The position numbers and the translations under genes were made by a program. A stretch of DNA of 64,000 bases from Ignavibacteriales bacterium (lineage in GTDB: Bacteria > Bacteroidota > Ignavibacteria > UBA10030 > SZUA-254), in assembly GCA_016218025.1 (NCBI GenBank), contig JACRFD010000079.1:243-64242 (forward strand), given 5' to 3'. Shown piece after piece: positions 7,247 through 30,211 of the stretch. Numbering within the stretch: the first letter of the stretch is position 1; each line of letters begins with the position of its first letter. Under the pieces are notes generated by a model, which saw only the letters and a program-made list of their open reading frames with translations, did no database searches and was not told the origin of the DNA.

Positions 7247-9514
7247 TCAGTTTGAATAAAAATAATCTGTCAAATATTTTGTCCTCGGAATAATATAATA
7301 TTTATCTCCGCTGATTGAAACCGGATATGCTAATTTATTGAAAATAATCTGAATATTTTCTTTAATTGTATCCCTGCCGATTGTTGAGAATTTTACGGGA
7401 ATAACAAGATCGGTGTCGGGGAATGAATACCAGGAAATTTCTTTCCTGAGGTCTTTTTTTGTTCTGAATTGATACGGTGTATCGAAAGCCCGTAATTCAT
7501 CTTTATCTATTCCATAAGAAATGGAAACCGTATAAGGACGGAATTTTGTGTTAATGTGAAGTTGGATGTCGTAATGATTTGTGTCTCCCCGCCGTTGCTT
7601 CTCAATTTTGCGATTTATGAAAGTCCAAGTTGTGTCGAATTCATGACCGGGAATAATTTCCATCCTTGAGATTTTGGAACATATTAGTGTATCAGCTTCG
7701 GGATGAGTTATCTTGAAACCGTTGAGATATTCGGAACTTTTGACAGTAACATTTTTCACGTGCCGTGTCAAATCATAATTTTGTTCGATCGAGATATCTT
7801 TCTGCCAGAAGATATCGTTCGATGGTCGAATAACAAGCAGAATGGTAATTCCAATAAATATTAATAATGCGACTGAGAATGCTTTGTATGATTTTAAAAT
7901 TAAAATGTAATTTTTTAATTTTTCAGAATCTCTGATTGCAGCCGCAAAAGCGAGTAGAAACGGAAACATGTAAATACTTAAAAGAAAAATTACAGTGCCG
8001 TTCGCTATCAGCGATGTAATATTGTTGTTTAATTCAACTTTAGCAGCTTCATGGAATAGTATTTCACTCCACTCTGAAAATATTAATCTCAACATCCATA
8101 TCGGGGAAAGAATAAGTAAAGTCATCTTTAAAAAGGGATTGCGTATTAAAATTGCCAGGCTGATCAATAATAATGCCGCCGCCGGTTCGATACCAAGTTT
8201 AGGGTTTATATATCCAAGACTTATTGTGTAAATGGTTAGAAAAATAAATCCTCTCTTAAAAAAGAAATATGGACAATCCGATAAACGGATTTTAGAACTG
8301 AACCGTAAGGCAATCCAACCTCCAATTGCGGCTCCGATAAAAGATAAAATATAATAGAGGTTAATGTCGATAAACCACGAGTGGCGGACTCCTTTTAAGG
8401 CAGCGATGATGTTTGGACTGAGCCAGCCGAATGAAATAATTATTATCGTGAAAAAGAAAAGTTTCAATCCCGACCAGCGGACTGTTTTCGGTTTACGACG
8501 TTTTCTGATAACTAGTAATGAAATAATTGCAAGAACAATTGTCGATGAAATAAGCAACCAAATCATCCAATAAGAAAAGAAAATCGGAGTACTGCCTGCC
8601 ATGTAAAGCCAGTAATTTTCCAATGTTGACTGAGGTGTCAGGTTATCAAAACGTTTGATTAAATTTTGAACGACATCACCTGATCTTTTCAATCCGACCG
8701 GGTCAAAATTTTCAAAATTATCCTGCGGTGTGTGAACCGGATAACTCACATCGGAAATAAAAGCTATCGCAGGAATTCCTTTTTGAAGAAACGGTTCATG
8801 ATCAGATCCGGGACCGTCTGCTGCTGAATAATTAAGAGAGAAAAAATGCGTAGGATATCTCAAATTTGTATAACCAAGTTTTGCATATTCTTCAATTGCA
8901 GCACTCACAAGCCATCGTGGTGCACTTGCCGATTTGTGTGCATCCGGATCGATATCAAGTGGTCCTCTTCCATCTGCCATATCTAATTGGATCATCAGCT
9001 TAACGCTATCGATATCTTTGAAATTTCTGACAAAATGTTTAGAGCCAACGAGTCCTTTTTCTTCTCCGCCGAAACAGCAAAAGACAAGAGTTGAATTCAA
9101 TTTCTGATTGCATGAAATTCTTGCAGTTTCCAGAACTACTGTACAGCCGGAAGCGTCGTCATTAGTGCCCGGAATTTCCGGATCAGATGAATCAATATGT
9201 CCGCCGATTACAATGCTTTTCTTTGAATATCCGTACTTAATTCCCACGGCAACACCGCTTGAAGTGTTACCACCAATGTATCTATCTATCTGCATTATGT
9301 ATGCAGTATCGCATCCGTAGTTAAGAAATTTTTCAACTGCATATCTCAGAGCTTTTTGTTCAGCAGGCGAGCCCATCGGGCGGGGACCGATTTGCAAACT
9401 GAAATGTTTCAATATCTGATGGGCACTGTCTTGGGAAAAATTTGTTTGGGTTGATGAATTTGAAGAGAGAAAGCATATGCAGAGGAGAAATCTCAAAACG
9501 TTTCGAACAATCAT
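7247..9514 (-). CDS. M28 family metallopeptidase with multi-pass membrane domain
   Basis: GGHIDS, NDDASG, GGEEKGLVGS, SDH and HTPQD zinc motifs followed by about 8 TM segments. Confidence 0.88.
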   Translation of the reverse strand: MIVRNVLRFLLCICFLSSNSSTQTNFSQDSAHQILKHFSLQIGPRPMGSPAEQKALRYAVEKFLNYGCDTAYIMQIDRYIGGNTSSGVAVGIKYGYSKKSIVIGGHIDSSDPEIPGTNDDASGCTVVLETARISCNQKLNSTLVFCCFGGEEKGLVGSKHFVRNFKDIDSVKLMIQLDMADGRGPLDIDPDAHKSASAPRWLVSAAIEEYAKLGYTNLRYPTHFFSLNYSAADGPGSDHEPFLQKGIPAIAFISDVSYPVHTPQDNFENFDPVGLKRSGDVVQNLIKRFDNLTPQSTLENYWLYMAGSTPIFFSYWMIWLLISSTIVLAIISLLVIRKRRKPKTVRWSGLKLFFFTIIIISFGWLSPNIIAALKGVRHSWFIDINLYYILSFIGAAIGGWIALRFSSKIRLSDCPYFFFKRGFIFLTIYTISLGYINPKLGIEPAAALLLISLAILIRNPFLKMTLLILSPIWMLRLIFSEWSEILFHEAAKVELNNNITSLIANGTVIFLLSIYMFPFLLAFAAAIRDSEKLKNYILILKSYKAFSVALLIFIGITILLVIRPSNDIFWQKDISIEQNYDLTRHVKNVTVKSSEYLNGFKITHPEADTLICSKISRMEIIPGHEFDTTWTFINRKIEKQRRGDTNHYDIQLHINTKFRPYTVSISYGIDKDELRAFDTPYQFRTKKDLRKEISWYSFPDTDLVIPVKFSTIGRDTIKENIQIIFNKLAYPVSISGDKYYIIPRTKYLTDYFYSN

Positions 9515-10419
9515 GTCAAATTCCTTTTATAAAAATCCAATAATTTATTCTGATACTTCTCTCCGCCGATATCCCATGTATTATTGTGCGCGGCTCCTTC
9601 AATCGGATAAAGTTCCTTCGGTTCGGTTGCTTTCTCGAAAAGTTGAATTGAATATTGGTAATTGATTAACGGATCGACCGTGCCGTAAACAAATAGTATC
9701 GGGATGTGAATATTTTTTACCGATTCAAGCGGGGATACATCACGCGCCTTAAATTTTGCCCTCAGTTCCGAATGTATGATAACAATATTTCTGAGGTAAT
9801 GAAACGGAAGTTTGATAATCCGTTTCTGATAATCGTCGAAGATTTTCCGCAAAGCGGCAAACGAGTTTTCTGAAACAACGGCAGAAATCCGTTTATCTAT
9901 AGCTGCCGATTGAATTGCTACAGCCGCCCCCATTGAAGTTCCGAAAAGTCCGATTTTCCCCAGAGAGAGATCAGTGCGTGATACGAGATAATTGATGATT
10001 GTTGTGACATCGTTTTTTTCATGGTAACCGTAGGTGCAATGTGTACCTTCACTCTGTCCGTGCCTGCGTGAATCGTGAAGAAACATATTATAATGATTAT
10101 CGTGCATCAGCTTTGCGAATCGCAAACCGTCGATTTTGCAGTCTGCTACGCCATGCAGATAAATGATTGTCCCTTTTGCCGGTTGCTTTGATTTGATGAG
10201 CCAGCTATTAAGCCGGAATCCATCGTGTGTGTGAATATTGATTTCTTCGAATTCAAGATCGAGTTCTGTGGGATCTGTCGGCAACCCTGCTTTTCTGTAA
10301 AATTCAGCCGTTCTTCTTCGTGGTTGAAGAAGTAAAGTGGGACCGATGATAAATATTATTACCGTTGCTGAAATCAAGAAAACAGCCAAAGCTGCCGCAA
10401 GTGCGATAAGAAGTATCAT
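9511..10419 (-). CDS. membrane-anchored alpha/beta hydrolase
   Basis: N-terminal TM; YLHG, GTSMG, GTVD and AAHN triad motifs; 4-bp overlap with the M28 gene. Confidence 0.9.
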   Translation of the reverse strand: MILLIALAAALAVFLISATVIIFIIGPTLLLQPRRRTAEFYRKAGLPTDPTELDLEFEEINIHTHDGFRLNSWLIKSKQPAKGTIIYLHGVADCKIDGLRFAKLMHDNHYNMFLHDSRRHGQSEGTHCTYGYHEKNDVTTIINYLVSRTDLSLGKIGLFGTSMGAAVAIQSAAIDKRISAVVSENSFAALRKIFDDYQKRIIKLPFHYLRNIVIIHSELRAKFKARDVSPLESVKNIHIPILFVYGTVDPLINYQYSIQLFEKATEPKELYPIEGAAHNNTWDIGGEKYQNKLLDFYKRNLT

Positions 10420-18059: not shown

Positions 18060-20477
18060 ATGGATTCTTCCACTAAATACGTCGAGATTTTAGAAGGTAT
18101 TTCAGGTGGTTTTTTTGCTTTAGACAGTGACTACCGGTTTACTTACTGGAATCGTGCCGCCGAAGATGGCACAGGATTGAAAAGAGATGATGTTTTGGGT
18201 AAAAATGTCTTCGAAGTTTTTCCGAATGCCAAAGATGCAGAGCTTGGTGAAAAATACCGTATTGCCATGGAGACTAAAACGTTCCAAAGCTTTGAAACAT
18301 GTTATCGTGATGAACGGTTTGAATCTTGGTATGATATAAGAATTTATCCGACCGATAATGGCATTTCAGTTTTTTTCCAGGATATCACAAATCAAAAAAG
18401 AGAACAGCGGCAAAAAGAAATGCTGATGGAGGTTTCCCATGTTATAAACGTCGCGCCGCACTTGGATGATTTATGCCTGAACGCAGGCGAACGCATAGCG
18501 GAATTCATGGAAATCCCGCCGAAGTTTGTTTGTATCTACCGTTACGAGCAGAGATCGGGACTTCTTCATTTAATGGCTCCCTCGCTGGTTGACGTTAGAG
18601 TTAATCCCGATGTTGAACACCAGATTGTTGATGAAAAAACAGACACCATTGCAGTTCAAACTGCTCTGACGCGCAAAGCGATTGTAACCGATGAGCTTGC
18701 CCGTAGTACAATTGCGGCATATTTTTTAGGCGAGACCAACGAATTAAAACTTAAAACACTGATTTCTATTCCATTGATGGTGCAGAATGAGCTTCAGGGA
18801 ATTTTAGAAGTACTTTCTCCTAAAGTCGATAATTATGTCCGTGACGAAATAAAATTGTTATCCATTATCTCTAACGAACTCGCCATCGGCATGAGCAGAA
18901 AACGATTGATGGATGAAATCACGATCAAGAATATAGAACTTGAAAACGAAAAGAAAAGAACCGACGATGCGAACGAAACATTAAAAAGGTTCCTTGCTAC
19001 CTTTAGCCATGAGCTGCGGGCTCCGTTGAATGCCATCGTAGGATTTTCTGAGATATTAACTACCGAATTGCAAAACCTGCCCCGTGAAAAAGTCAGCGAC
19101 TTCATGAAGAATATTCATGAGAGCGGCAAGCACCTGCAGGGCTTAATCAACGATATACTCGACCTTTCGAAGATCGAAGCCGGTAAAATGGAGCTTCATA
19201 TAGAAGCATATCCTGTTTCGTATTTCAGCGAAAGTATTCAACGTGTAATGCAACAAGTGATACAACAAAAAAATCTCAATTTGAAATTTGAAATCGGTCA
19301 TGATATTGAGCAGTTAGTTGTAGATCAAACACGTTTTAAACAGATTTTAATGAACTTAGTTTCAAATGCAGTTAAGTTCAGCCATAATAACGGCACTGTA
19401 ACTGTGGCTATAAAAAGATTTGTCAACGAGATAGAAATAGCCGTTAAAGATGAAGGGGTTGGAATTAAACCCGAAGATCAGGTACGGTTGTTCCATGCTT
19501 TCACGCAGGGAAAAAATTCAAAAGGAATGAAAGAAGGAACAGGTCTTGGACTTGTAATAACCAAGCGGTTGGTTGAACTTCACGGCGGACATATTACCGT
19601 TGATAGTGAATGGGGAAAAGGAACAACATTCCGTTTCCGGATACCAATGGTTCTTGCAGGCGAAGTAGTAGAATCAGCAGATCAACTGTTGCGCGTTGTG
19701 AATGAACAACCTCTCGCAATGCCGGAAGGTGAGAAACCGCTTATTCTTATCATCGAAGATAACGCTCAGGCAAGTCAGCTAATACAGATGTATCTGCAGG
19801 AAGCAGGATACAGAACCGAGGTTGCAAAAGACGGGGCAGAAGGATTGGAAAAAGCGAAGCGCCTGAAACCGCAAATCATAACTCTCGATATGATCATGCC
19901 GGTGAAAGACGGTTGGCAGGTATTGAAGGAATTGAAACGACATCCTATCTGCAAAGATATTCCTATTATCATCATTTCGATTACCGATGAAAAGAAACTC
20001 GGTTTCAGCATGGGCGCGGTTGATTATTTTGTTAAGCCCGTGAATAAAGATGAGCTTCTGAACGCCCTGCGGAAAATCCCGCTTCGTAACATCGAGCAAA
20101 AGCAGCATCCGAAAGTTTTAATTATAGACGACGACAAAAACGCTTCGGAATTGATACAGGTTATGTTGGAAGCGGAAGGTTACGATGTTATTAAAACGAT
20201 GAACGGAAAAGACGGAGTGCAATTGGCTTTTTCCGAAACACCCGATCTGATTATTTTGGATTTGATTATGCCCGACATATCGGGATTTAATGTTGCCTAT
20301 CAACTTAAACAACAAGCGAAAACACGGAACACGCCTATTATCATTCTCACTTCTATGGAAGTCGATGAAGATACACGCGAGCAGATGCAGGGATTTATTT
20401 CTACCATCATGAGTAAATCGCGATTTACCAAAAAAGATCTTCTCCGCGAAATCAACACGATTGAGAAGATGAAATAA
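18060..20477 (+). CDS. hybrid sensor histidine kinase (PAS-GAF-HisKA-HATPase-REC-REC)
   Basis: PAS (FTYWNRAAE), H-box SHELRAPLN, NLVSNAVKF, GTGLGL, and two receivers (ITLDMIMP, IILDLIMP). Confidence 0.95.
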   Translation: MDSSTKYVEILEGISGGFFALDSDYRFTYWNRAAEDGTGLKRDDVLGKNVFEVFPNAKDAELGEKYRIAMETKTFQSFETCYRDERFESWYDIRIYPTDNGISVFFQDITNQKREQRQKEMLMEVSHVINVAPHLDDLCLNAGERIAEFMEIPPKFVCIYRYEQRSGLLHLMAPSLVDVRVNPDVEHQIVDEKTDTIAVQTALTRKAIVTDELARSTIAAYFLGETNELKLKTLISIPLMVQNELQGILEVLSPKVDNYVRDEIKLLSIISNELAIGMSRKRLMDEITIKNIELENEKKRTDDANETLKRFLATFSHELRAPLNAIVGFSEILTTELQNLPREKVSDFMKNIHESGKHLQGLINDILDLSKIEAGKMELHIEAYPVSYFSESIQRVMQQVIQQKNLNLKFEIGHDIEQLVVDQTRFKQILMNLVSNAVKFSHNNGTVTVAIKRFVNEIEIAVKDEGVGIKPEDQVRLFHAFTQGKNSKGMKEGTGLGLVITKRLVELHGGHITVDSEWGKGTTFRFRIPMVLAGEVVESADQLLRVVNEQPLAMPEGEKPLILIIEDNAQASQLIQMYLQEAGYRTEVAKDGAEGLEKAKRLKPQIITLDMIMPVKDGWQVLKELKRHPICKDIPIIIISITDEKKLGFSMGAVDYFVKPVNKDELLNALRKIPLRNIEQKQHPKVLIIDDDKNASELIQVMLEAEGYDVIKTMNGKDGVQLAFSETPDLIILDLIMPDISGFNVAYQLKQQAKTRNTPIIILTSMEVDEDTREQMQGFISTIMSKSRFTKKDLLREINTIEKMK

Positions 20478-20489
20478 TATTTATTTTGT

Positions 20490-20537
20490 AGACCTCCGGT
20501 TTTTACAATTTGATTTCAACGAAAAAACCGGAGGTCT
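20490..20537. repeat. REP-like inverted repeat / bidirectional terminator
   Basis: agacctccggtttt ... aaaaccggaggtct between convergent genes, with GTAG at the foot. Confidence 0.7.
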
Positions 20538-20573
20538 TACAAGTTACCTCACAAAAATTTATCCTCCAAGGAG

Positions 20574-22724
20574 TCATCGAAGCAGGATCATTTTCTTCAC
20601 ATCAATAAATTCACCTGAAACGATCTTGTAGTAATAAATCCCACTCGGTAAATCACCGGCATTGAAAATAACAGACTTATATCCCGCAGTCTCAATCCTA
20701 TCTATCAGAGTTGCCACTTCCTCTCCCAGAATATTGTAAACTTTAATTGTTGCCCAATTAGCAATTGGCAATTGATAATTGACAGTTGTTAATGGATTAA
20801 ACGGGTTTGGATAATTCTGGTTTAGAGCAAACTCTTTCGGCAATTGTTTTTCATCTTTTACATCAACCGTTGTTTTACGCTTGAACTTTATCGCCTGTCC
20901 GTTCTTCGGTATGAATTGCTCAGGGAAATCTCTTCCGTATAACTTTAACCATCTTGTTGTATCCTGCTCAAATCCTATAGTGGCATATTTTGCTAAGTTA
21001 CTCCAGCCGACACTGTTGTATAGAAATGTAATACTGCTATCATAGTTATCAAGTATCAGCTCAAAGCTCGATGTGCAATCTGTATCGTTAACCCAGTTAC
21101 CCAGATTTAACCATTGGACAATAAATCTATCAGGTTCTTTCTTGAAATATATCTTACCGCTGTCGCAGTTGAACCAATCTGATAATAGTTTAAAGTCAAG
21201 CCACATGGGGGCTATGAAGTTCTTCGGCATCCCCGTTGGTTGAACTTGAGAAAACGGTATATCCCACATCATGAAGTAATCGTTGCTGTTGAGGTGAAGT
21301 GTGTCGTGCATTGTTTCACCCAAAGCGATACCGCCGTTTATTCCGATGAAAGCATATCTTGTTGGTTTATCGAAGAAATTAAAATCAAATCCAATATCAA
21401 TATGTTGAGCGGTGCCATCGTCTATGTATTCGTACGATGAATGCTCGTTGGTTCGCAGGCGGTAGTAACTATAATCTATCCAAAGATCTGTATTGCCTAA
21501 CTCAACCCAGTCAAAAGAGGCAGATGTATCTGCAACAAAACCATTTTGATCTAAACCTGCTACGCTGTATGAGTATGAATATTGCTGTTTTACAGTACCT
21601 GACGAATCTACAACTCTGCATTTAAGTTCAACAAGTGTAGCTGCCGGTTGACCGGGCAGAGTAACAGCGTACATTGTATCTCCAACAATAACTGCCGGTA
21701 CAGAATCCCATCCTTTCCCGTTAAAATTATAATCCACCCAAACGCCTGCAATACCGGCGCTGTCCAAGTATTCAGGTTTACAGAATTTCATTAAGTTTAA
21801 TTCAATCAGTTCGAAATCTAATTTTGCTCTTTGAAGCCATGATTTTGTTGGTATGATTTCGGGGTAGGGATAATTTAATGTCATCGTGTACCAAAAGGCT
21901 GGTCCATTCCAATTCATTCCAACCCAACCTCTCGGAGCCCATTGAAGAAAATCGTGTTCTAAAAATTTTAAATAGCGCCAAGGTATCGATTCGTCATGAA
22001 TGGGATAGCCAGCAAAATCACCTATAATAGGATTTAAATGAGTTGATTCATTTTTGATGCATATGAAAAACGATTGATCTTTTTTTAATACCGGATAATC
22101 TAAAATTCCTAGATCAAGCTCGATTAAGTGTATGCTTTGATCCGATAAAATGTCTATCGGAAAACCTGTCCATCCCCATATCGGGTCTCCTATTGGATCC
22201 CAAGTTGAATCTTGGTTAGTGTTAATCCAGTTTGTGTCTGTTGCTTGATCTTTGAATGGTGAAATTCCCATGTCTGGGTCGCGAGAACTTAAATAATAAC
22301 CATAGGGCCAATAATTATTGTGTTGTGGTGTGCCGCAATTATTATTAGGTGAAAGATTGGAATTCATTATTCTTATTGTCACAGGGTAAGTAACATATGA
22401 ATGAAACAGAGAAGGAACGATTACAAAAAAAATACTTTCAATAATTCCATCAGCCGGAGCTTCGAAGCGGGTAGCCATCACCTGTTGATGACCAAAACCT
22501 GCTATATCATGTTCTAAATCTATCTCTTCTATATTTACAGGATAACCGAATATCCCACTTTTATTACAATTAACTTTTGGTTGTTTGTACTCTTTAACTA
22601 TTTGAGATGAAGTTTTAACCTTTGATAAAGGTAAAACTTCTCCCTCAGGTGAGACTAAAATTTTATTTTGCGATAGACAAACCGAATAGAGAAAGAAAAT
22701 AACAAATACAACAATCCGCTTCAT
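20574..22724 (-). CDS. secreted protein with nidogen-like region and T9SS-type C-terminal sorting domain
   Basis: Signal peptide; IGFDFNFF...FIAPMWLD segment; QNYPNPFNP...KKMILLR. Confidence 0.85.
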   Translation of the reverse strand: MKRIVVFVIFFLYSVCLSQNKILVSPEGEVLPLSKVKTSSQIVKEYKQPKVNCNKSGIFGYPVNIEEIDLEHDIAGFGHQQVMATRFEAPADGIIESIFFVIVPSLFHSYVTYPVTIRIMNSNLSPNNNCGTPQHNNYWPYGYYLSSRDPDMGISPFKDQATDTNWINTNQDSTWDPIGDPIWGWTGFPIDILSDQSIHLIELDLGILDYPVLKKDQSFFICIKNESTHLNPIIGDFAGYPIHDESIPWRYLKFLEHDFLQWAPRGWVGMNWNGPAFWYTMTLNYPYPEIIPTKSWLQRAKLDFELIELNLMKFCKPEYLDSAGIAGVWVDYNFNGKGWDSVPAVIVGDTMYAVTLPGQPAATLVELKCRVVDSSGTVKQQYSYSYSVAGLDQNGFVADTSASFDWVELGNTDLWIDYSYYRLRTNEHSSYEYIDDGTAQHIDIGFDFNFFDKPTRYAFIGINGGIALGETMHDTLHLNSNDYFMMWDIPFSQVQPTGMPKNFIAPMWLDFKLLSDWFNCDSGKIYFKKEPDRFIVQWLNLGNWVNDTDCTSSFELILDNYDSSITFLYNSVGWSNLAKYATIGFEQDTTRWLKLYGRDFPEQFIPKNGQAIKFKRKTTVDVKDEKQLPKEFALNQNYPNPFNPLTTVNYQLPIANWATIKVYNILGEEVATLIDRIETAGYKSVIFNAGDLPSGIYYYKIVSGEFIDVKKMILLR

Positions 22725-22770
22725 AAAACTCCCAATTATTAAAATACAGATGATAATACATTTTATCTAC

Positions 22771-22799
22771 TTGACAATAATAAAAAAAAGAATTAAATT
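22771..22799 (+). promoter_or_regulatory. near-consensus sigma70 promoter of the MauE-like operon
   Basis: TTGACA-17 bp-TAAATT. Confidence 0.65.
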
Positions 22800-22830
22800 C
22801 AAGTACATTTTTTATAGAGGGGAAAAAATT

Positions 22831-23301
22831 GTGAAAGCGGGTATATTACCTTTTCTAATTGCTGTAATTAGGATCATCTTAGGGGTGGTTTTCAGTCTCT
22901 CCGGTATCATTAAACTATTAAATCCAACAAATTTTTATAATTCTTTGCGTGGCTTCAACGTATTACCTGAACCATTAGTTGTACCATTTGCATTAATGAT
23001 CTCAACGGTTGAATTGCTTGCTGGTGTTATGATGGTCGCTGGATTATGGATTAAATTTGCTTCGTTTGTTATTTCAATTCTCCTGCTCGTATTTATAGCG
23101 GCAATAATTCCAATAATAATTTCTGGTGATATTGTCGGCTGTGGTTGTTTCGGTTCAATTGTTGAAGAAAAAGTAGATGTATATCTTATTCTAAGAGATG
23201 TAATATTTTTAATATTCAGTTTAGTTGTATATCAAGATATAAATCAGAAAATGAGCGTTGATAAAATAGTAAGTCGAAGGAGGTCAGATGTTCAAGAATA
23301 A
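22831..23301 (+). CDS. MauE/DoxX family membrane protein
   Basis: RIILGVVFSLSGIIK, CGCFG motif, about 4 TM. GTG start chosen because it follows AGAGGGG and lies downstream of the promoter. Confidence 0.88.
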   Translation: MKAGILPFLIAVIRIILGVVFSLSGIIKLLNPTNFYNSLRGFNVLPEPLVVPFALMISTVELLAGVMMVAGLWIKFASFVISILLLVFIAAIIPIIISGDIVGCGCFGSIVEEKVDVYLILRDVIFLIFSLVVYQDINQKMSVDKIVSRRRSDVQE

Positions 23302-23881
23302 AAAGATAGGCTGGATTCAATTACTGAGTATCGTGGTCAATATATTTTTGCTTGTAGAAGTTGTAGTGCTTGCCTTGCAAAACCGTGCGTTAAGATCGCA
23401 AATGAGCACCCTGTCGAAAATTATTACTCCTGACCCTCTCGTGATTAATGATACCGTAAAATCATTCTTTTACCAAAAAATAGATGGTAATATTGACACA
23501 ATACGTTACCATCCAAATGGAAAGTCCATTTTATTATTTGTTTATTCAATAACATGTCCATACTGTGAGAAAAACTGGAGTCTCTGGGAAGATATTTACA
23601 ATAAGGTTAAAAATAAAAATTTGAATGTACTTCGATTATCGATTAATACCATTGAGAGAACGAAAGAACACCTTCTGAAAAAGCAGACCGATGATCTACG
23701 GACCGGTTCCGTTGCTGTTGATACAACATTCAGAAGAAGTTATAAAATATCAAACGTACCTCAAACTATTTATATAAATCAAAATGGAGTAATTGAAGGA
23801 GTGTGGGTGGGTGAATTGAAGCCCGACCAAAAACAAGAAATTTTAAAACGATGCCTTAAGAGCATCGATATAAATAACTAA
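23288..23881 (+). CDS. membrane-anchored thioredoxin-fold (TlpA/MauD-like) protein
   Basis: N-terminal TM; FVYSITCPYC (CxxC); NVPQTIYIN cis-Pro loop; overlaps the upstream gene. Confidence 0.88.
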   Translation: MFKNKKIGWIQLLSIVVNIFLLVEVVVLALQNRALRSQMSTLSKIITPDPLVINDTVKSFFYQKIDGNIDTIRYHPNGKSILLFVYSITCPYCEKNWSLWEDIYNKVKNKNLNVLRLSINTIERTKEHLLKKQTDDLRTGSVAVDTTFRRSYKISNVPQTIYINQNGVIEGVWVGELKPDQKQEILKRCLKSIDINN

Positions 23882-23906
23882 ATCATAAACCATAAAAGGA
23901 GGGTAT

Positions 23907-24125
23907 ATGAAATATCTTCAAATAATCTTGATCTGTTTTTCTTTCGTCGCAATTATTGCAGTAGCGACAATAATTAACACAGACGTGGCTTGGGCCCAAC
24001 GAATGTGCAATATTGTATGTGATTGTGAATATTGCGCATCAAATCCTGAATTGTGTGCAACAATGTCTTGCCAAGCCCCGTATGGCATAACAACCTGCAA
24101 AAACTGGTGCAGGGTAGAGGATTAA
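23907..24125 (+). CDS. secreted cysteine-rich peptide (72 aa precursor, 8 Cys in the predicted 42-aa mature part)
   Basis: Strong SD AAAGGAGGG; signal peptide ending VAWA; mature QRMCNIVCDCEYCASNPELCATMSCQAPYGITTCKNWCRVED. Confidence 0.8.
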   Translation: MKYLQIILICFSFVAIIAVATIINTDVAWAQRMCNIVCDCEYCASNPELCATMSCQAPYGITTCKNWCRVED

Positions 24126-24236
24126 TATTCGGATGGTTGTTCTGGATAGTTCACAGGTTAAGAGCGAATAACTTTTTAAAAAATATTTTCGTGATTTCAT
24201 TTAGAACAACCATTATTATCTTTCGATAAAGATAAA

Positions 24237-24974
24237 ATGAAAAGCAAAATAATAATTTATTCACTACTTATTTTATTTTTGGAAGGCTGCCTTTCTGTAA
24301 AGGAAACTTATGATAAACCACCTAACGAGTGGAACTCAAACGAATGTCTTTTGATTCTTTCAAATGCTATTTCCCATAATTTGTTCGACAACAGAACGAA
24401 TATAAAAATTATTGCAACTCCATATTATCCATCCGTCATACTTGCACTTTACCGGAATAGAAATGAGGTCAGAAAATGGACAATGGATCAATATAAAATC
24501 GACGTCGATGAGCTAATGAAATACAATGCCGGGCTATACTACGATTGGACTTCAAATAAAATAGTGGATAGCAAAGGAAATTATTTCAAGGATAAAACTC
24601 AAATAGATTCGCTGATGTTCATGATATCGATTACCAATCTTGCATACTATAGTGCAGGTTCTATGATGCAGGTAAAAGTCGGTGGCGCCGTTGTTTGGAT
24701 GCCGCTTGTTTCACCCGACCAAATTTATACACCTGAGATATCGAGGCTGGAGGAAAATATTTTTTTAACAAACGACCAATCTCGGTCAATTAAACCTAAA
24801 TATGTGTGGGGAAAAAAGAATACCATGTTAACAACTGAGGAAACATTATTTGTAATGTTTAACTTAAGGGCTGGAGACAATCATTTTTTATCAAAATCTG
24901 AATCTATCTATTTGCTGATAAAGGGATTTGAGGAAGATATCATACTAACTTTTCCTCTGAAATATTTAAAATGA
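24237..24974 (+). CDS. hypothetical lipoprotein
   Basis: Lipobox LEGC; 245 aa. Confidence 0.78.
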   Translation: MKSKIIIYSLLILFLEGCLSVKETYDKPPNEWNSNECLLILSNAISHNLFDNRTNIKIIATPYYPSVILALYRNRNEVRKWTMDQYKIDVDELMKYNAGLYYDWTSNKIVDSKGNYFKDKTQIDSLMFMISITNLAYYSAGSMMQVKVGGAVVWMPLVSPDQIYTPEISRLEENIFLTNDQSRSIKPKYVWGKKNTMLTTEETLFVMFNLRAGDNHFLSKSESIYLLIKGFEEDIILTFPLKYLK

Positions 24975-24986
24975 GTTCATCGAGCG

Positions 24987-25034
24987 AGAAGTCCGACTTC
25001 TGCGTGTGAGAAACGGTGAAGAAGTCGGACTTCT
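24987..25034. repeat. REP-like inverted pair
   Basis: agaagtccgacttct (24987-25001) and its exact reverse complement (25020-25034) between convergent genes. Confidence 0.75.
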
Positions 25035-25040
25035 GCATTA

Positions 25041-26585
25041 TTAACGCAACACAATCATTTTCTTTGTTTCTGCAAATTGAATGGTTCGCAATCTGCAAAA
25101 ATAAACTCCGCTTGAGAGATTTGAACCGTTAAACTTCACGCTGTATCGTCTCGGCTTCTGAATATCATGAACAAGCGTTTCAATTTTTCTTCCTAAAAGA
25201 TCAAAAACCTCCAGTTTGACTAACCCCTCACGGGTGATTTCATATTCGATAGTTGTAAAATTATTAAATGGATTTGGATAGTTTTGTTTTAACATTGTTG
25301 CTTTTGGTCTGGTTTCACCGGGGAAAATACCTCGTCGGAAGAATATCTCTCCATTTCCATCTACATTGCCGGACCAAACAATACTAAGTGTATTATCTTG
25401 CATGCTCATTGCAGGTTCGGCAGAACGATAATTACCTGCTGGATAGAACGGATCACAAAACGATTCACCTTTATCTGTACTGTGCTGCAATACAATTGTT
25501 GATGAATCGCCCGCTTGGGTATCCCATATCACGGTAAGAAGTCCTTCTGTATAATCTAAATCCGGAAATATTGCATCTCTGCTTGCAGGCAATTTTTTCT
25601 GTGGATTCCATCTGATGTTTTCTTCCTCATCCAAACCGTTGCTTCGCCGGAAAATAACTGCTCCGGAATCATTCCACACAAAATATTTTTCATCCATTTC
25701 GTCAACAGCTATTTTCGGATAAAGAGAGGAAACAGCATCTTCCAACGAAATTAACTCGGGACCATACCACGAACTACCGCCGGTCGGACTAAAGTAATAG
25801 CCAACATCGGTTCTGCGTGTGGAGGCAATTGCTCCGGCTCCGTGATACAAACTTGAAGTTAACCAAACATCATTAAGCGGCTGCATGCTGGTTGTTGCAG
25901 TTCTCCATGTGGAACCGTAATTCCCGCTTCGCAACATTCCGGAATAAGATGGTTTTTGGTCACCATAATGAATAATTACTACCGAATCGTACGCTGCAAT
26001 AAATTTTGGTTGAGAACTGCTGCGAAGTATAACCGGACTGCTCCACGAAAATCCTGCATCTGAGCTTTTGATGTAACCTATTCCAAATACTCCGCCAATA
26101 TACCCGTTGAAAGTGATAAAAATATTATAACCCGATTGGGCTATATATCCCGGACCGAACGCTGCTTCAGGAGTAACGATTGTGACCGGTTCAGAGAATG
26201 TAAGACCATTATCAAAACTATGCGAGTACACGATACCAGATCCGTTTAAACCTCCGAGAGTGTCTATGCCGAACCAGATGATATGAACTCCGCTTCCATT
26301 GACAGAAATTTTTGGGTTTAAGGATATAACCGAATCGCGCGAAAGTTGAACTGTCGGTTGCCAGTTGAGGTCGCACGAAAATATTTGGCTCCTGCTTGAG
26401 GATGTAAGGAAAAGAATCCCAAGAAACAAAAAGAACAATATCTGATGAGAAAATTTAGGAATAAATTGCGTTTCATGAACATTTTTGTTCATGATGAATT
26501 TATATGGGTGAGCTTCTGTATTATTATCTATGGTGTCCAAAAAAATCCTCTGCAAGATAATACGAAGAAAGATAGATGAATTCAA
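25041..26585 (-). CDS. BNR/Asp-box repeat secreted protein with C-terminal sorting domain
   Basis: SFDNGLTFS, SSDAGFSWS and STDKGESF Asp-boxes; QNYPNPFNN C-terminal domain. The true start may be downstream. Confidence 0.85.
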   Translation of the reverse strand: MNSSIFLRIILQRIFLDTIDNNTEAHPYKFIMNKNVHETQFIPKFSHQILFFLFLGILFLTSSSRSQIFSCDLNWQPTVQLSRDSVISLNPKISVNGSGVHIIWFGIDTLGGLNGSGIVYSHSFDNGLTFSEPVTIVTPEAAFGPGYIAQSGYNIFITFNGYIGGVFGIGYIKSSDAGFSWSSPVILRSSSQPKFIAAYDSVVIIHYGDQKPSYSGMLRSGNYGSTWRTATTSMQPLNDVWLTSSLYHGAGAIASTRRTDVGYYFSPTGGSSWYGPELISLEDAVSSLYPKIAVDEMDEKYFVWNDSGAVIFRRSNGLDEEENIRWNPQKKLPASRDAIFPDLDYTEGLLTVIWDTQAGDSSTIVLQHSTDKGESFCDPFYPAGNYRSAEPAMSMQDNTLSIVWSGNVDGNGEIFFRRGIFPGETRPKATMLKQNYPNPFNNFTTIEYEITREGLVKLEVFDLLGRKIETLVHDIQKPRRYSVKFNGSNLSSGVYFCRLRTIQFAETKKMIVLR

Positions 26586-26688
26586 CTTAGCGATTAGAAA
26601 ATTATTTAATTGTTTGGAAATTTCTTACATTAACAACATAATTGCCCGAATAATTCCATATTTCAATTGATTTTCAAAGGAAAACATC

Positions 26689-29600
26689 ATGAAGCTATAT
26701 CGTATTTCATTTTTCTTCGTTTTTTTCGCTCTCTTTTCGATGATCTGTTTTAGTCAATCGATCATCATAAACGAGATTTATAATTCAAGTAGCACAGACG
26801 AATGGATCGAACTGTTGGTAGTGCAAGACGGACTCGATGTGCGGGGATGGGATATCCGCGATTTTTCAAGTAGCGGAAGTGCCCAAACTCCGTTAGTATT
26901 TTCTACTCATTCAATATGGAGTAGTTTGAAAGCCGGTACGATTATAGTCGTTGCTCGATCGGAAAATACATTCAATGAAGATACAGATCCGGGTGATTAT
27001 ACTCTTACTATTAAGTCTAATAACGCCACATATTTCAGCGGTAATGTTTTTTCAGTGGCGGGAAGTAGCGAGGCAATTGAGATTCGGAATGCATCTCAGC
27101 TTCATATATTCGGTGTATCGTGGGGAGCGAATAATGCGTCGAGTTTACCTGATCCCAAGGTCCATTTCACTGCCTCTGCGACATCAAGTACTGCGACCGC
27201 ATTTACAGGTGATGCCGTTGGTCAATTAACGAACACGGCTAATTGGGCGCAGAATACAGCCACAATCACACGAGGCACAGGTAATACAGCTGCGAACATC
27301 GCTTGGCTCAATCTGTTACGTGCCCGCGCCGATGGATCAGGGAGTGTATCATTTAGTCCTATCGTTGTCAATGGTAATGTTGATACGACGCTTACTATGG
27401 TTTACACCCGCGATATTAGTTTCAATGTAAACAATCTGCGGTTGATCATTCCTGCTTCATTTGGTTGGTCGAAAGATACAGCGAGTGTATTCTTTACCGA
27501 TATGACAGCAGTGAAGAGTATTTCGGGAGATACTATATATTTCACCGACATAATTTTCTCATCGGATTCATCTACCATTACAATACCGCATGTTATAACT
27601 CCGATGTACACAGGATATTACAAAATAAAACTACAATCTGGTATCAATGGATCATACGGTGACGTCTCACCAATTCCAGTCATGACCGTATATGGCGCCC
27701 CTATTCCAATTGCCGAAACAAAAGTAAACGACGCTAACGGTGTAGCGACTCGCGTCGGGGAACTTGTTACAGTCAGGGGTATTATCACTGCTTCCAATCA
27801 GTTTCCCAGCCCGAGTTACATCCAAGATAATTCCGGCGGTATGTCGATTTATAATGTTCCCTTTTCTTCAACTGTCAATATTGGTGACGAAATATTAGTG
27901 AGTGGTAAGGTAACTCAATTTAGTGGGCTGAACCAGATTGAATTGCCAATTCTTCATTCAATCATCAGTACAGGGAATATTGTTGATCCAATTGTCGTAA
28001 CTCCCTCTGAGGTAAACAACGATGGGATTGGAGGTATAGAAAATTACGAGGGTCAACTTGTCCGGTTAAATGGTGTCACAGTTACTGAATTAAATGGTAC
28101 CGTTGTAGCCAATTGGAGTGGTGGAACGAGTGGAAAGAATTATCGTTTGACCGGTGCTTCTCTAAGTGATACATTACAAATAAGAATAGACGAGAGCACG
28201 AATATTCCAGGTGTTGTAGCACCGGCAGGAGCTTTTGATGTTATCGGAGTGATCAGCCAATATAAGACGACGAGTCCGTTCATCGGTGGTTATCAAATTA
28301 TGCCACGCTCAACCAAAGATATTATTTCTGAGGGTCCGCTATTCGCGGAGTTTCCGCAGGAAACTGAATTAACCCCAACATCACTAGCAATTACATGGAA
28401 AACGATCTCACCGGGGACATCCCGCATTCGTTATGGGACAACGACAGCGTACGAGCTTGGGGTAGTGGAAGTACATACAGATACAATGCAGACAGACCAT
28501 TATGTGCCGCTAAACGGTTTATCGGTTGCAACCATCTATAATATACAAGCATTTTCCACAAGCGGCACCGATACAAGTTTCGCGGGTAATCTTATTGTCA
28601 GCACAACATCCGATGCACCGACAACCGGAGTGATCAATGTTTATTTCAGCAAGAGCATCAACACGTCTGTCTCTTCAGGCGAAACAGCACTCGGTAATTT
28701 CGATTTAGCAGCGAAACTTATTTCCCGGATCAATAATGCAAAACGTTCCATCGATGCATCTATTTACAGTTTAAGCGGGACTGTTGGGGCTACAATTGCT
28801 AACGCTCTTATCGGTGCAAAAAATCATGGAGTGAATGTTCGCGTTATCGGAGAATATGATAACCGTACCACTGCCCCCTGGTCAACATTATCAACCAATG
28901 GAATACCGGTAATATTTGATCTTTATGGTGCAAATGATGGAAGCGGTTTGCAGCATAATAAATTTATTGTGATAGATTATAAAGGCGGCGCACCGGAAAG
29001 TGTTTGGGTATGGACAGGTTCGTGGAATCTAACAGATCCCGGCACCACATCTGATCGTCAGAATGCAATCGAGTTTCAGGATGTTGCACTTGCCGGGGCT
29101 TACACTGTTGAGTTCGAAGAAATGTGGGGAAGTAATACACTAACACCGAATTCATCAGTTTCACGTTTTAGTGCCCGCAAAACGAATAACACTCCGCATA
29201 AATTTATCATCGGCGGAAAAAATGTAGAATGTTATTTCAGTCCGAGCGATAGAACCACTGTCCAAATTGGAAAAACATTGGGTAAAGCCGAACATTCGAT
29301 CAATGCAGCTCTTCTAACATTTACACGTCAGGATCTTGCCGATTCAATTATTCACAAAAAGAATGCAGGTAAGATTGCTCGTGTTGTAATGGATAATAAT
29401 ACCGATACCGGGAATCAATATGCATATTTACAATCAAATGGTGTCGATGTGCTTTTGAAGGGTGGAAGCGGTTTGCTTCATCACAAGTATGCGATTGTTG
29501 ATGCTGAGGTGTTGAGCGGTTCAGCATATACCGTAACCGGTTCGCACAATTGGTCGAACTCAGCCGAAACCAAGAATGATGAGAACACGGTGATTGTAAA

Positions 29601-29976
29601 AGATGACCGGATTGCAAATCTCTATCTTCAAGAGTTTGCTGCTCGGTATTACGAAGCAGGCGGAACGAACACCATCGTTCTGGGTGTGACTGAAACCGAC
29701 GGTGGAATTCCGTCGTCATTTTCATTGTCGCAAAATTATCCCAATCCGTTCAACCCGACTACAGACTTCGGATTCCGGATTTCAGATTTCGGATTTGTTT
29801 CTTTGAAAGTGTATAATCTCCTCGGTCAGGAAGTGGCAACAATAGTGAACGAACAAATGAAGCCCGGAAGTTATAAGGTTACATGGGATGCAAGCCAGAT
29901 GTCGAGTGGAGTTTATTTTTATCGCTTGCAATCTGGAAAATTCACTGATGTCAAGAAGATGGTGCTCGCAAGATAA
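26689..29976 (+). CDS. secreted PLD-superfamily nuclease/phospholipase (lamin-tail, OB-fold-like, Fn3, 2 x HKD, sorting domain)
   Basis: IIINEIYN..EWIEL lamin-tail start; HNKFIVID and HHKYAIVD HKD motifs; QNYPNPFNP C-terminal domain. Confidence 0.88.
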   Translation: MKLYRISFFFVFFALFSMICFSQSIIINEIYNSSSTDEWIELLVVQDGLDVRGWDIRDFSSSGSAQTPLVFSTHSIWSSLKAGTIIVVARSENTFNEDTDPGDYTLTIKSNNATYFSGNVFSVAGSSEAIEIRNASQLHIFGVSWGANNASSLPDPKVHFTASATSSTATAFTGDAVGQLTNTANWAQNTATITRGTGNTAANIAWLNLLRARADGSGSVSFSPIVVNGNVDTTLTMVYTRDISFNVNNLRLIIPASFGWSKDTASVFFTDMTAVKSISGDTIYFTDIIFSSDSSTITIPHVITPMYTGYYKIKLQSGINGSYGDVSPIPVMTVYGAPIPIAETKVNDANGVATRVGELVTVRGIITASNQFPSPSYIQDNSGGMSIYNVPFSSTVNIGDEILVSGKVTQFSGLNQIELPILHSIISTGNIVDPIVVTPSEVNNDGIGGIENYEGQLVRLNGVTVTELNGTVVANWSGGTSGKNYRLTGASLSDTLQIRIDESTNIPGVVAPAGAFDVIGVISQYKTTSPFIGGYQIMPRSTKDIISEGPLFAEFPQETELTPTSLAITWKTISPGTSRIRYGTTTAYELGVVEVHTDTMQTDHYVPLNGLSVATIYNIQAFSTSGTDTSFAGNLIVSTTSDAPTTGVINVYFSKSINTSVSSGETALGNFDLAAKLISRINNAKRSIDASIYSLSGTVGATIANALIGAKNHGVNVRVIGEYDNRTTAPWSTLSTNGIPVIFDLYGANDGSGLQHNKFIVIDYKGGAPESVWVWTGSWNLTDPGTTSDRQNAIEFQDVALAGAYTVEFEEMWGSNTLTPNSSVSRFSARKTNNTPHKFIIGGKNVECYFSPSDRTTVQIGKTLGKAEHSINAALLTFTRQDLADSIIHKKNAGKIARVVMDNNTDTGNQYAYLQSNGVDVLLKGGSGLLHHKYAIVDAEVLSGSAYTVTGSHNWSNSAETKNDENTVIVKDDRIANLYLQEFAARYYEAGGTNTIVLGVTETDGGIPSSFSLSQNYPNPFNPTTDFGFRISDFGFVSLKVYNLLGQEVATIVNEQMKPGSYKVTWDASQMSSGVYFYRLQSGKFTDVKKMVLAR

Positions 29977-30022
29977 ATCTGGTATCCGATATGTGATATT
30001 GGATGATAGATGTTAGTTAATC

Positions 30023-30059
30023 AACCCCCGTGAATCTAAATTGGTTCAGGGGGTTTTTT
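30023..30059 (+). terminator. rho-independent terminator
   Basis: aaccccc.tgaa / ttca.gggggtt stem followed by a T-run. Confidence 0.7.
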
Positions 30060-30211
30060 ATTGCCCTCTAAATTCTTCAAAATTCAACCATTTTATAAAC
30101 CTCCTTCCTAAAAATCAGGGATTCCCTGATTGATTTTGAATAATTTTATTTATACAATAAATGAGGTATTCGATGTAACTTTTCTGAATTAACTCTAAAA
30201 ATGGAGGAACC

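Follow-up and report, generated by a model that had tools for sequence, protein, structure and literature searches.

Gene content of the locus

The window analysed here is a stretch of 64,000 nucleotides (nt) from an Ignavibacteriales metagenome-assembled genome (MAG; assembly GCA_016218025.1, contig JACRFD010000079.1, positions 243 to 64,242 of the forward strand). Four genes on the same strand span 22831–24974 of the window and encode, in order, a MauE-family membrane protein, a thioredoxin-fold protein (the thioredoxin, for short), a 72-amino acid (aa) peptide precursor and a 245-aa lipoprotein. The precursor belongs to a family of cysteine-rich peptides strictly linked to the thioredoxin, and the module probably serves the oxidative folding of a secreted mini-protein. 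Its features, in window coordinates, are listed below; structural models are from AlphaFold2 (AF2).

22771–22799, plus strand: match to a sigma-70-like promoter (TTGACA-17-TAAATT; 10 of 12 consensus positions, by sequence only)
22831–23301, plus strand: MauE-family membrane protein (PF07291), 156 aa, GTG start with GAGGGG upstream
23288–23881, plus strand: membrane-anchored thioredoxin-fold protein, 197 aa (Pfam AhpC-TSA, Thioredoxin_2 and Redoxin)
23907–23996, plus strand: predicted Sec-type signal leader of the precursor, 30 aa, ending V-A-W-A (family alignment and AF2 helix)
23997–24125, plus strand: predicted mature core, 42 aa with eight cysteines, and stop codon (family profile and cysteine parity)
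24237–24974, plus strand: 245-aa lipoprotein, fourth module gene in the window's leader subtype (conserved downstream homologues)
24987–25034, no strand assigned: perfect hairpin with 15-nt arms, separating the lipoprotein stop from the 3' end of a convergent gene
20478–25040, no strand assigned: 4.5-kb segment absent from both same-genus genomes (synteny against genomes G002 and G001)

The MauE and thioredoxin open reading frames (ORFs) share a 14-nt overlap, and AGGAGG precedes the latter. The precursor ORF (23907–24125) starts 25 nt past the thioredoxin stop with AGGAGG 7 nt upstream, and the lipoprotein ORF begins 111 nt beyond it. No terminator-like site was found between the four genes on the plus strand; they therefore probably form one operon, likely ended by the hairpin as a bidirectional terminator. 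An earlier note, made from the letters of this DNA, had described a three-gene mauE-mauD-like operon. Its account of the three ORFs was confirmed throughout (overlaps, 25-nt gap, Shine–Dalgarno sequence, VAWA ending, eight-cysteine spacing and single tryptophan), but the fourth gene had been missed. It had also placed a near-consensus promoter ahead of the operon. The TTGACA-17-TAAATT sequence is there, but it carries no weight by itself because such sites are equally frequent in shuffled sequence (14 promoter-like matches in the AT-rich stretch, against 12.2 ± 3.5 in shuffles). An alternative in-frame ATG for the MauE ORF, at 22750, lies upstream of this proposed promoter.

A family of putatively secreted cysteine-rich peptides

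The mature part of the window peptide, QRMCNIVCDCEYCASNPELCATMSCQAPYGITTCKNWCRVED, contains one tryptophan and has the cysteine spacing C-x3-C-x-C-x2-C-x6-C-x4-C-x8-C-x3-C. Single-sequence searches were uninformative: a word-indexed search with the peptide returned no match besides itself, and a six-frame search of relatives gave noise except for one weak match, which turned out to adjoin a thioredoxin homologue. In related genomes, thioredoxin homologues (34–37% identity) were each followed by a 70–90-aa ORF of similar build, and these ORFs could be aligned. A profile built from 11 of them was searched against 1.84 billion cluster representatives and matched 78 at E ≤ 1e-3 (15 at E ≤ 1e-10), with lengths of 63–103 aa in all but two. 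Scans of 77 members against Pfam and NCBIfam gave no convincing match, the best scattered ones (E 0.0006–0.09) being noise; likewise the PDB held no sequence match for the family, and Foldseek none for the window peptide model. Conservation as a family and the fixed position behind the thioredoxin gene place the peptide ORF well beyond chance, and a spurious ORF was ruled out on these grounds.

The leaders share a positive N-terminus, a hydrophobic helix and the common ending ..GLLQLFHEEAYA, and alanine at positions −3 and −1 is kept in at least 90% of the 77 aligned members. The window leader starts with MK, continues with a 20-residue hydrophobic stretch and ends in A-W-A, a build that, judged by eye and by alignment, is that of a Sec signal cleaved by signal peptidase I; AF2 predicts it as a confident helix. 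The cores, on the other hand, are hypervariable in both sequence and length (31–77 aa). They keep a C-x3-C-x-C motif near the start and C-x2-[YW]-C near the end. They are 18% cysteine, rich in glycine, proline, serine and threonine, and mostly acidic (median net charge −2). Each core holds 6, 8, 10, 12 or 14 cysteines, an even number in 84 of 84 cores and never an odd one, which is what full pairing into disulfides predicts, rather than free thiols.

The closest pair of paralogues comes from two modules of one genome, ~4 kb apart, and its divergence points to a leader under constraint, unlike the core. The proportions of differing nonsynonymous and synonymous sites (pN and pS) were 0.056 and 0.28 for the leader, and pN was 0.37 for the core. 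These raw values are given for one pair only; synonymous sites are saturated in all other pairs. The N-terminal glutamine of the window core, for which pyroglutamate capping had been suggested, is present but not conserved across the family and so at most a local detail.

Two other identities for the peptide were rejected. A cytochrome c-type client was ruled out by the lack of a CxxCH motif. A subunit of a tryptophan tryptophylquinone (TTQ) enzyme was ruled out too, as the earlier note had anticipated, with no MauA similarity in the peptide and neither mauB nor mauG among the adjacent genes. On one metagenome contig (L029:13-1436), two family peptides with FHEEAYA-type leaders stand in tandem, and the gene after them encodes a DUF1573/HYDIN-like Ig-fold protein, not the lipoprotein.

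Strict linkage to a thioredoxin-fold protein

The window thioredoxin has one N-terminal transmembrane segment and carries its active site in the sequence SITCPYCE (CPYC at 23555–23566). The AhpC-TSA, Thioredoxin_2 and Redoxin models all scored above their Pfam cutoffs, and the CxxC, the conserved V-P-x-T cis-proline loop and the hydrophobic N-terminal segment are those of TlpA/ResA-like proteins. Against the MauD equivalog model TIGR02661 it reached 26.6 bits, far below the trusted cutoff of 188.6. The NCBIfam models for ResA (41.6 bits) and StoA (33 bits) outscored MauD, both below their own cutoffs, and ResA and StoA are also the closest solved structures. Of the mauE-mauD-like operon described earlier, the MauE family assignment thus stood while the thioredoxin proved not to be a MauD equivalog. 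Across the thioredoxin family the active site is CPHC in 20 of 35 members and CPYC in 7 of 35. CPHC is the motif of E. coli DsbA and CPYC that of DsbG, both oxidising members of the thioredoxin fold. The membrane anchor has its own motif, ..EVVLLxLQNRxLK, with an acidic residue inside the helix.

A search for related loci with the single window thioredoxin as query found none. With a six-sequence alignment, 41 bona fide thioredoxin loci were gathered after removal of duplicates, all from Ignavibacteria MAGs, mostly from soil. Among the thioredoxin-profile matches followed by 350 nt or more of sequence, 34 of 37 had a peptide-profile match on the same strand. Of the remaining three, L012 is an unrelated 621-aa protein, and L060 and L076 carry a signal-bearing, cysteine-rich ORF that the profile missed. 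A same-strand ORF with signal leader and cysteine-rich core hence lies downstream of the thioredoxin in all 36 bona fide loci with downstream sequence (36/36). It usually starts 5–120 nt past the thioredoxin stop, and several loci hold a tandem pair of peptides.

The obligate unit is thioredoxin plus peptide. This linkage, together with conservation of the small ORF as a family, supports the earlier proposal of a stand-alone oxidative-folding system outside methylamine metabolism. The further expectation that a triad of MauE, thioredoxin and variable cysteine-rich peptide would recur was borne out for the latter two partners but only in part for MauE, which is found in 11 of 37 loci.

A dedicated MauE paralogue

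The window MauE matched PF07291 with an E-value of 2.7e-24 and 86.3 bits (cutoff 27) over profile positions 3–125 of 128. It contains DIVGCGCFG and thus the CXC-FG signature, with the CGCFG active-site motif at about 23140–23154, in the loop ahead of the last transmembrane helix. CGCFG is present in 28 of 28 stand-alone relatives and in 8 of 15 module-linked ones, of which 4 more have CACFG. Recent experiments showed that an E. coli dsbB mutant regains motility and PhoA activity when given MauE from either of two phyla, and that the CXC motif is essential; a thioredoxin-family intermediary (MauD or DsbA) was proposed, and MauE was suggested to be the second most common bacterial disulfide-generating enzyme (2026 preprint, bioRxiv 10.64898/2026.03.05.709764). 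From its matching CXC-FG motif, we predict that the window MauE generates disulfides as well.

MauE lies directly upstream of the thioredoxin in the 11 loci counted above and is optional in this locus type. PF07291 itself occurs in 41 of the 44 genomes of the window's GTDB family, usually as a single copy. In a maximum-likelihood tree, 28 stand-alone MauEs form one clade (support 98/100), with all module-linked copies, the window's included, outside it. By this phylogeny the linked MauE is a distinct paralogue that travels with the module.

The stand-alone MauE loci (L081–L110; e.g. L081:815-1956) have a setting of their own. In 28 of 28, a membrane protein of ~220 aa with a rhodanese-like active-site loop (..YCNNAECPLGR..) is encoded immediately upstream, and in 26 of 28 a formyltransferase-like gene (fmt) lies farther upstream; none has an adjacent thioredoxin. 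Sulfur or rhodanese chemistry may therefore be what the stand-alone MauE serves, instead of, or besides, general disulfide formation.

The module is accessory DNA

Both same-genus genomes, G002 and G001, contain orthologues of the window genes at 18060–20477 (94% and 93% identity) and at 25041–26585 (60%). There the flanking orthologues are adjacent, ~80–100 nt apart (83 nt in G002), against 4.5 kb in the window. The intervening segment holds a 716-aa protein with a type IX secretion system (T9SS) tail (20574–22724, minus strand) and the four-gene module, whose GC content is 0.32–0.35 compared with 0.38–0.43 in the flanks. Absence from the congeners and lower GC content mark the module as accessory DNA. 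At both boundaries of the insertion lies the 3' end of a minus-strand gene that encodes a T9SS C-terminal sorting domain. A 20-nt direct repeat, 80% identical, occurs at 20578–20597 and 25045–25064, and its spacing of 4467 nt equals the size of the insertion. The segment may have entered by recombination between the conserved sorting-domain tails, or the repeat may be no more than a trace of domain homology.

Distribution of the module is patchy. Within the window's GTDB family, 18 of 44 genomes encode the thioredoxin, at most six times each (G016 and G446 reach six), and none was found in 16 genomes of the order's other families. Across the phylum, the peptide profile matched in 4 of 401 sampled genomes, two of the four being doubtful. 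The phylum-wide matches L032 and L033 resemble different peptide families beside propeller-like proteins and were left out of all counts. Contig C3 of G016 (26142-30942; L014 and L016) bears two full modules with ~4 kb between them and a gene for a BNR/Ycf48-like beta-propeller protein behind each; the two leaders hardly differ, whereas the cores have diverged.

The window's MAG (G000) carries a second module on contig C91 (23194-24074; L013:1459-2339), between an rsmE-like gene and a gene for a secreted protein of ~400 aa. It encodes an 86-aa precursor with 10 cysteines and has neither MauE nor lipoprotein. The syntenic copy of this second module has a TAG stop inside the thioredoxin in G002 and a frameshift in G022 (L008), so some modules are decaying.

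The lipoprotein and adjoining two-component genes

The lipoprotein has an invariant G-C lipobox and no Pfam or NCBIfam match. Its AF2 model is confident (predicted local distance difference test, pLDDT, 85), but comparison with the PDB gave nothing informative, a protein of unknown function coming closest at a template modelling (TM) score of 0.38–0.46. Homologues with 34–49% identity directly follow the peptide in L019, L056/L071, L059, L060, L111, L112 and L113. Overall, the lipoprotein lies downstream of the module in 7 of 33 loci. The metagenome peptides nearest to the window's (leader ..LNTDxAxA) are all followed by a lipoprotein homologue. A paralogue (E 8e-65) is encoded on contig C36 of the window's MAG (9104-9916), where it immediately follows the gene for a 2673-aa secreted protein and has neither thioredoxin nor peptide in its vicinity, so the lipoprotein family is not exclusive to the module.

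In some loci the module is adjoined, upstream in most, by a NarL/LuxR-type response regulator (7 loci) and by a HisKA_3 kinase with Reg_prop and PAS domains (6 loci). The loci concerned are L005, L042, L046, L057, L059, L065 and L067, and the window is not among them. Examples are L065:7-2728, L067:3979-6385 and L005:69-920, in which the kinase combines Reg_prop propeller repeats, PAS, HisKA_3 and HATPase.

A proposed oxidative-folding relay

We propose, with a probability of roughly 0.6, that the locus by itself provides for the oxidative folding of a secreted mini-protein, through a relay of quinone, MauE, thioredoxin and Sec-exported peptide. The 72-aa precursor would be exported unfolded through Sec and cleaved by signal peptidase I after VAWA. 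The adjacent membrane-anchored thioredoxin, in a DsbA-like role, would use its CPYC site to oxidise the eight core cysteines to four disulfides. The co-encoded MauE paralogue, in a DsbB-like role, would use its CGC site to re-oxidise the thioredoxin and pass the electrons to the quinone pool. Export and cleavage are predicted here from the leader, and which way the electrons flow and how the cysteines pair are predictions too. Relatives with no linked MauE would need another oxidant, perhaps the stand-alone copy. The module would exist because the lineage has no general DsbA/DsbB machinery; DsbB, VKOR, DsbA and Thioredoxin_4 gave no match in this MAG, which is 85% complete.

Several points weigh against this relay. 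Two thirds of the loci have no linked MauE. The constant pairing of the stand-alone copy with a rhodanese-like protein makes its role as a general oxidase in this lineage an assumption, and at 85% completeness the absence of DsbA and DsbB from the MAG is not proven. The closest structural relatives of the thioredoxin, ResA and StoA, are reductases. The topology of its anchor is only weakly predicted, with an ambiguous charge bias: lysine plus arginine are about equal in the two flanks, and net charge alone favours N-in. The core has a moderate AF2 pLDDT of only 59–80, and its model matched no known fold. Acidic-to-neutral cores, with no linked gene for outer-membrane export, argue against a classical cationic antimicrobial or bacteriocin.

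Alternative explanations

Alternatively, the peptide might be a secreted signal: the thioredoxin would still fold it, and a two-component system encoded beside the module and controlling the locus would detect it, with the variable core providing strain specificity. The response regulators and kinases directly beside some modules suggest such a pheromone, and a conserved leader with a hypervariable core also fits pherotype systems. Neither the window nor most other loci have a two-component system beside the module, however, and 8–14 cysteines would be unusually elaborate for a bacterial pheromone, so we consider this reading unlikely, if the least so of the alternatives. A more improbable one makes the thioredoxin a ResA/CcmG/TlpA-type reductase or isomerase that keeps the cysteines reduced, either for metal binding in a periplasmic metallothionein- or chaperone-like protein or for a cofactor. 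ResA and StoA are indeed its best PDB and NCBIfam matches, the cores combine 18% cysteine with some histidine, and DoxX/MauE relatives occur in copper-binding loci of peptides that are synthesized ribosomally and modified post-translationally (RiPPs), as a weak HvfX match (E 2e-4) recalls. Against this, an even count in all 84 cores over the range of 6–14 cysteines is expected of disulfides and not of metal sites. CPHC and CPYC are typical of oxidising members, the CxxCH haem motif is lacking, no CcdA/DsbD-type supplier of reductant is linked, and MauE is an oxidase by experiment (bioRxiv 10.64898/2026.03.05.709764).

Much the same low odds attach to the idea that the small protein stays in the membrane, its leader a permanent anchor docked to the transmembrane helix of the thioredoxin and its cysteine-rich ectodomain a complex subunit or redox partner. 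Both the leader (..GLLQLFHEEAYA) and the thioredoxin anchor are more conserved than ordinary signal or anchor sequences, and leader types cluster on the thioredoxin tree beyond shuffled labels (10 changes against a mean of 14.8). That signal is weak, though, in a poorly resolved tree in which a single leader type is monophyletic. The near-invariant A-x-A at −3 and −1, directly before the variable core, is a signal peptidase I signature, and a structural subunit would not be hypervariable. Least probable by a wide margin is a RiPP precursor, further modified with thioethers or crosslinks by enzymes encoded elsewhere, with thioredoxin and MauE as mere accessories. The conserved leader and hypervariable core are RiPP-like, and decRiPPter classed Streptomyces mauE clusters as candidate RiPPs (PMC7794033). 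Yet Pfam scans found no radical SAM enzyme, DUF692 protein, lanthionine synthetase, cyclodehydratase, protease or ABC exporter in the 4.5-kb insertion, and none recurring in ~40 loci. No class-defining modifying enzyme is thus at hand, in line with the earlier note, which had seen no radical SAM, DUF692 or lanthipeptide enzyme adjacent, and the leader is that of a Sec substrate.

Comparison with known systems

In methylamine dehydrogenase clusters, the genes are ordered mauE-mauD-mauA (van der Palen et al. 1997, as cited in PMC7794033 and bioRxiv 10.64898/2026.03.05.709764). The window resembles them in the succession of MauE, an anchored CxxC thioredoxin-fold protein and a small disulfide-rich exported client, whose maturation the helpers are presumed to be needed for. 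It differs in that the adjacent genes include no mauA, mauB or mauG homologue, the neighbours being T9SS-tailed proteins and the lipoprotein. The client is 42 aa long, hypervariable and not similar to MauA, the thioredoxin fails the MauD model, and MauE is dispensable. With the DsbB-like MauE of Gonzalez et al. 2026 (10.64898/2026.03.05.709764), the window's enzyme shares the Pfam family and the CXC-F-G motif. The preprint describes that enzyme as a generalist, whereas the window's diverged paralogue goes with a single peptide family and the stand-alone copy is paired with a rhodanese-like protein.

Peptide loci with their own disulfide enzymes are known elsewhere. Bacteroides, also without general Dsb machinery, has loci for bacteroidetocins (class IIf bacteriocins of Bacteroidetes) that bring their own thiol oxidoreductase, which is needed for full activity together with a polytopic membrane protein (Coyne et al. 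2019, PMC6671954). The same phylum-level lineage thus offers another small cysteine peptide beside a dedicated thiol oxidoreductase and a polytopic membrane protein. Bacteroidetocins, however, have a double-glycine leader, a C39-peptidase ABC exporter and cationic or hydrophobic cores with 4 cysteines. The window family shows no sequence similarity to them and has Sec-type A-x-A leaders, no linked exporter and acidic cores with 6–14 cysteines. There is no GG motif in the leader, and no ABC/C39 gene was found in the insertion or in ~40 related loci. The sublancin (glycocin) operon sunA-sunT-bdbA-sunS-bdbB also encodes its own disulfide pair, the thioredoxin-like BdbA and the DsbB-like BdbB (PMC6391423). 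It differs in being Gram-positive and prophage-borne, in having a glycosyltransferase, an ABC exporter and a DsbB-type rather than MauE-type oxidase, and in forming 2 disulfides.

Similar in idea are the Streptomyces mauE clusters found by decRiPPter, one of which also has mauD, with precursors of at least 8 cysteines proposed as candidate RiPPs (Kloosterman et al. 2020, PMC7794033). They too place MauE/MauD homologues outside mau clusters, beside precursors with at least 8 cysteines, and are likewise uncharacterised. They come from another phylum, their peptides are unrelated, and they stem from machine-learning prediction without family-wide linkage statistics. The earlier claim of an undescribed system accordingly needs narrowing: the peptide family is unannotated, but the decRiPPter clusters and MauE standing in for DsbB (bioRxiv 10.64898/2026.03.05.709764) came before. 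New here are the peptide family, its 36/36 coupling to a private thioredoxin, the even-cysteine rule and, by phylogeny, a dedicated MauE paralogue distinct from the stand-alone copy.

Possible functions and significance

As a leading guess, held at less than even odds, the finished product of the oxidative-folding relay would be a diversifying envelope or extracellular effector, antagonistic or defensive, with the lipoprotein as its partner (immunity protein, carrier or target). A conflict-related effector with a partner for immunity or carriage would agree with the hypervariable cores, the multiple copies, the patchy spread, the location on an insertion and a lipoprotein specific to one subtype. 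More speculatively still, soil Ignavibacteria might keep a venom-like library of Sec-exported peptides with 3–7 disulfides. The conserved transmembrane helix of the thioredoxin would recognise the conserved leader in the membrane. Cores would diversify and be swapped as cassettes that also carry their folding enzyme, in some cases a private MauE oxidase, and in one subtype a matching lipoprotein for immunity or carriage. Such peptides might serve as weapons between bacteria or give protection from foreign enzymes.

If this proved true, the peptides would be a new class of Gram-negative disulfide-rich effectors, and the MauE pathway would gain its first defined family of natural clients besides methylamine dehydrogenase. 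Beyond that enzyme the partners and clients of MauE are essentially unknown, and the locus presents a compact candidate MauE–thioredoxin–client relay with dozens of natural client variants. The ~80 peptide clusters, with 6–14 cysteines and no database model, are a source, in uncultured soil bacteria, of small, hyperstable disulfide-rich scaffolds, each with a matching foldase. Such pairs would be useful for production in other hosts and for activity screening. The strict pairing of peptide and thioredoxin also bears on how multi-disulfide proteins fold in bacteria without general Dsb machinery.

Surrounding secreted proteins

Large secreted proteins with a Por_Secre_tail (T9SS) domain surround the module, at 20574–22724 and 25041–36900 of the window. 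The earlier note had placed the operon in a secreted-protein island, and T9SS proteins do flank it. A search with one T9SS tail gave 60–70 matches in each same-genus genome. Since T9SS cargo is so abundant in the lineage, the adjacency is probably incidental, with the exception of the left gene, which lies inside the same insertion as the module.

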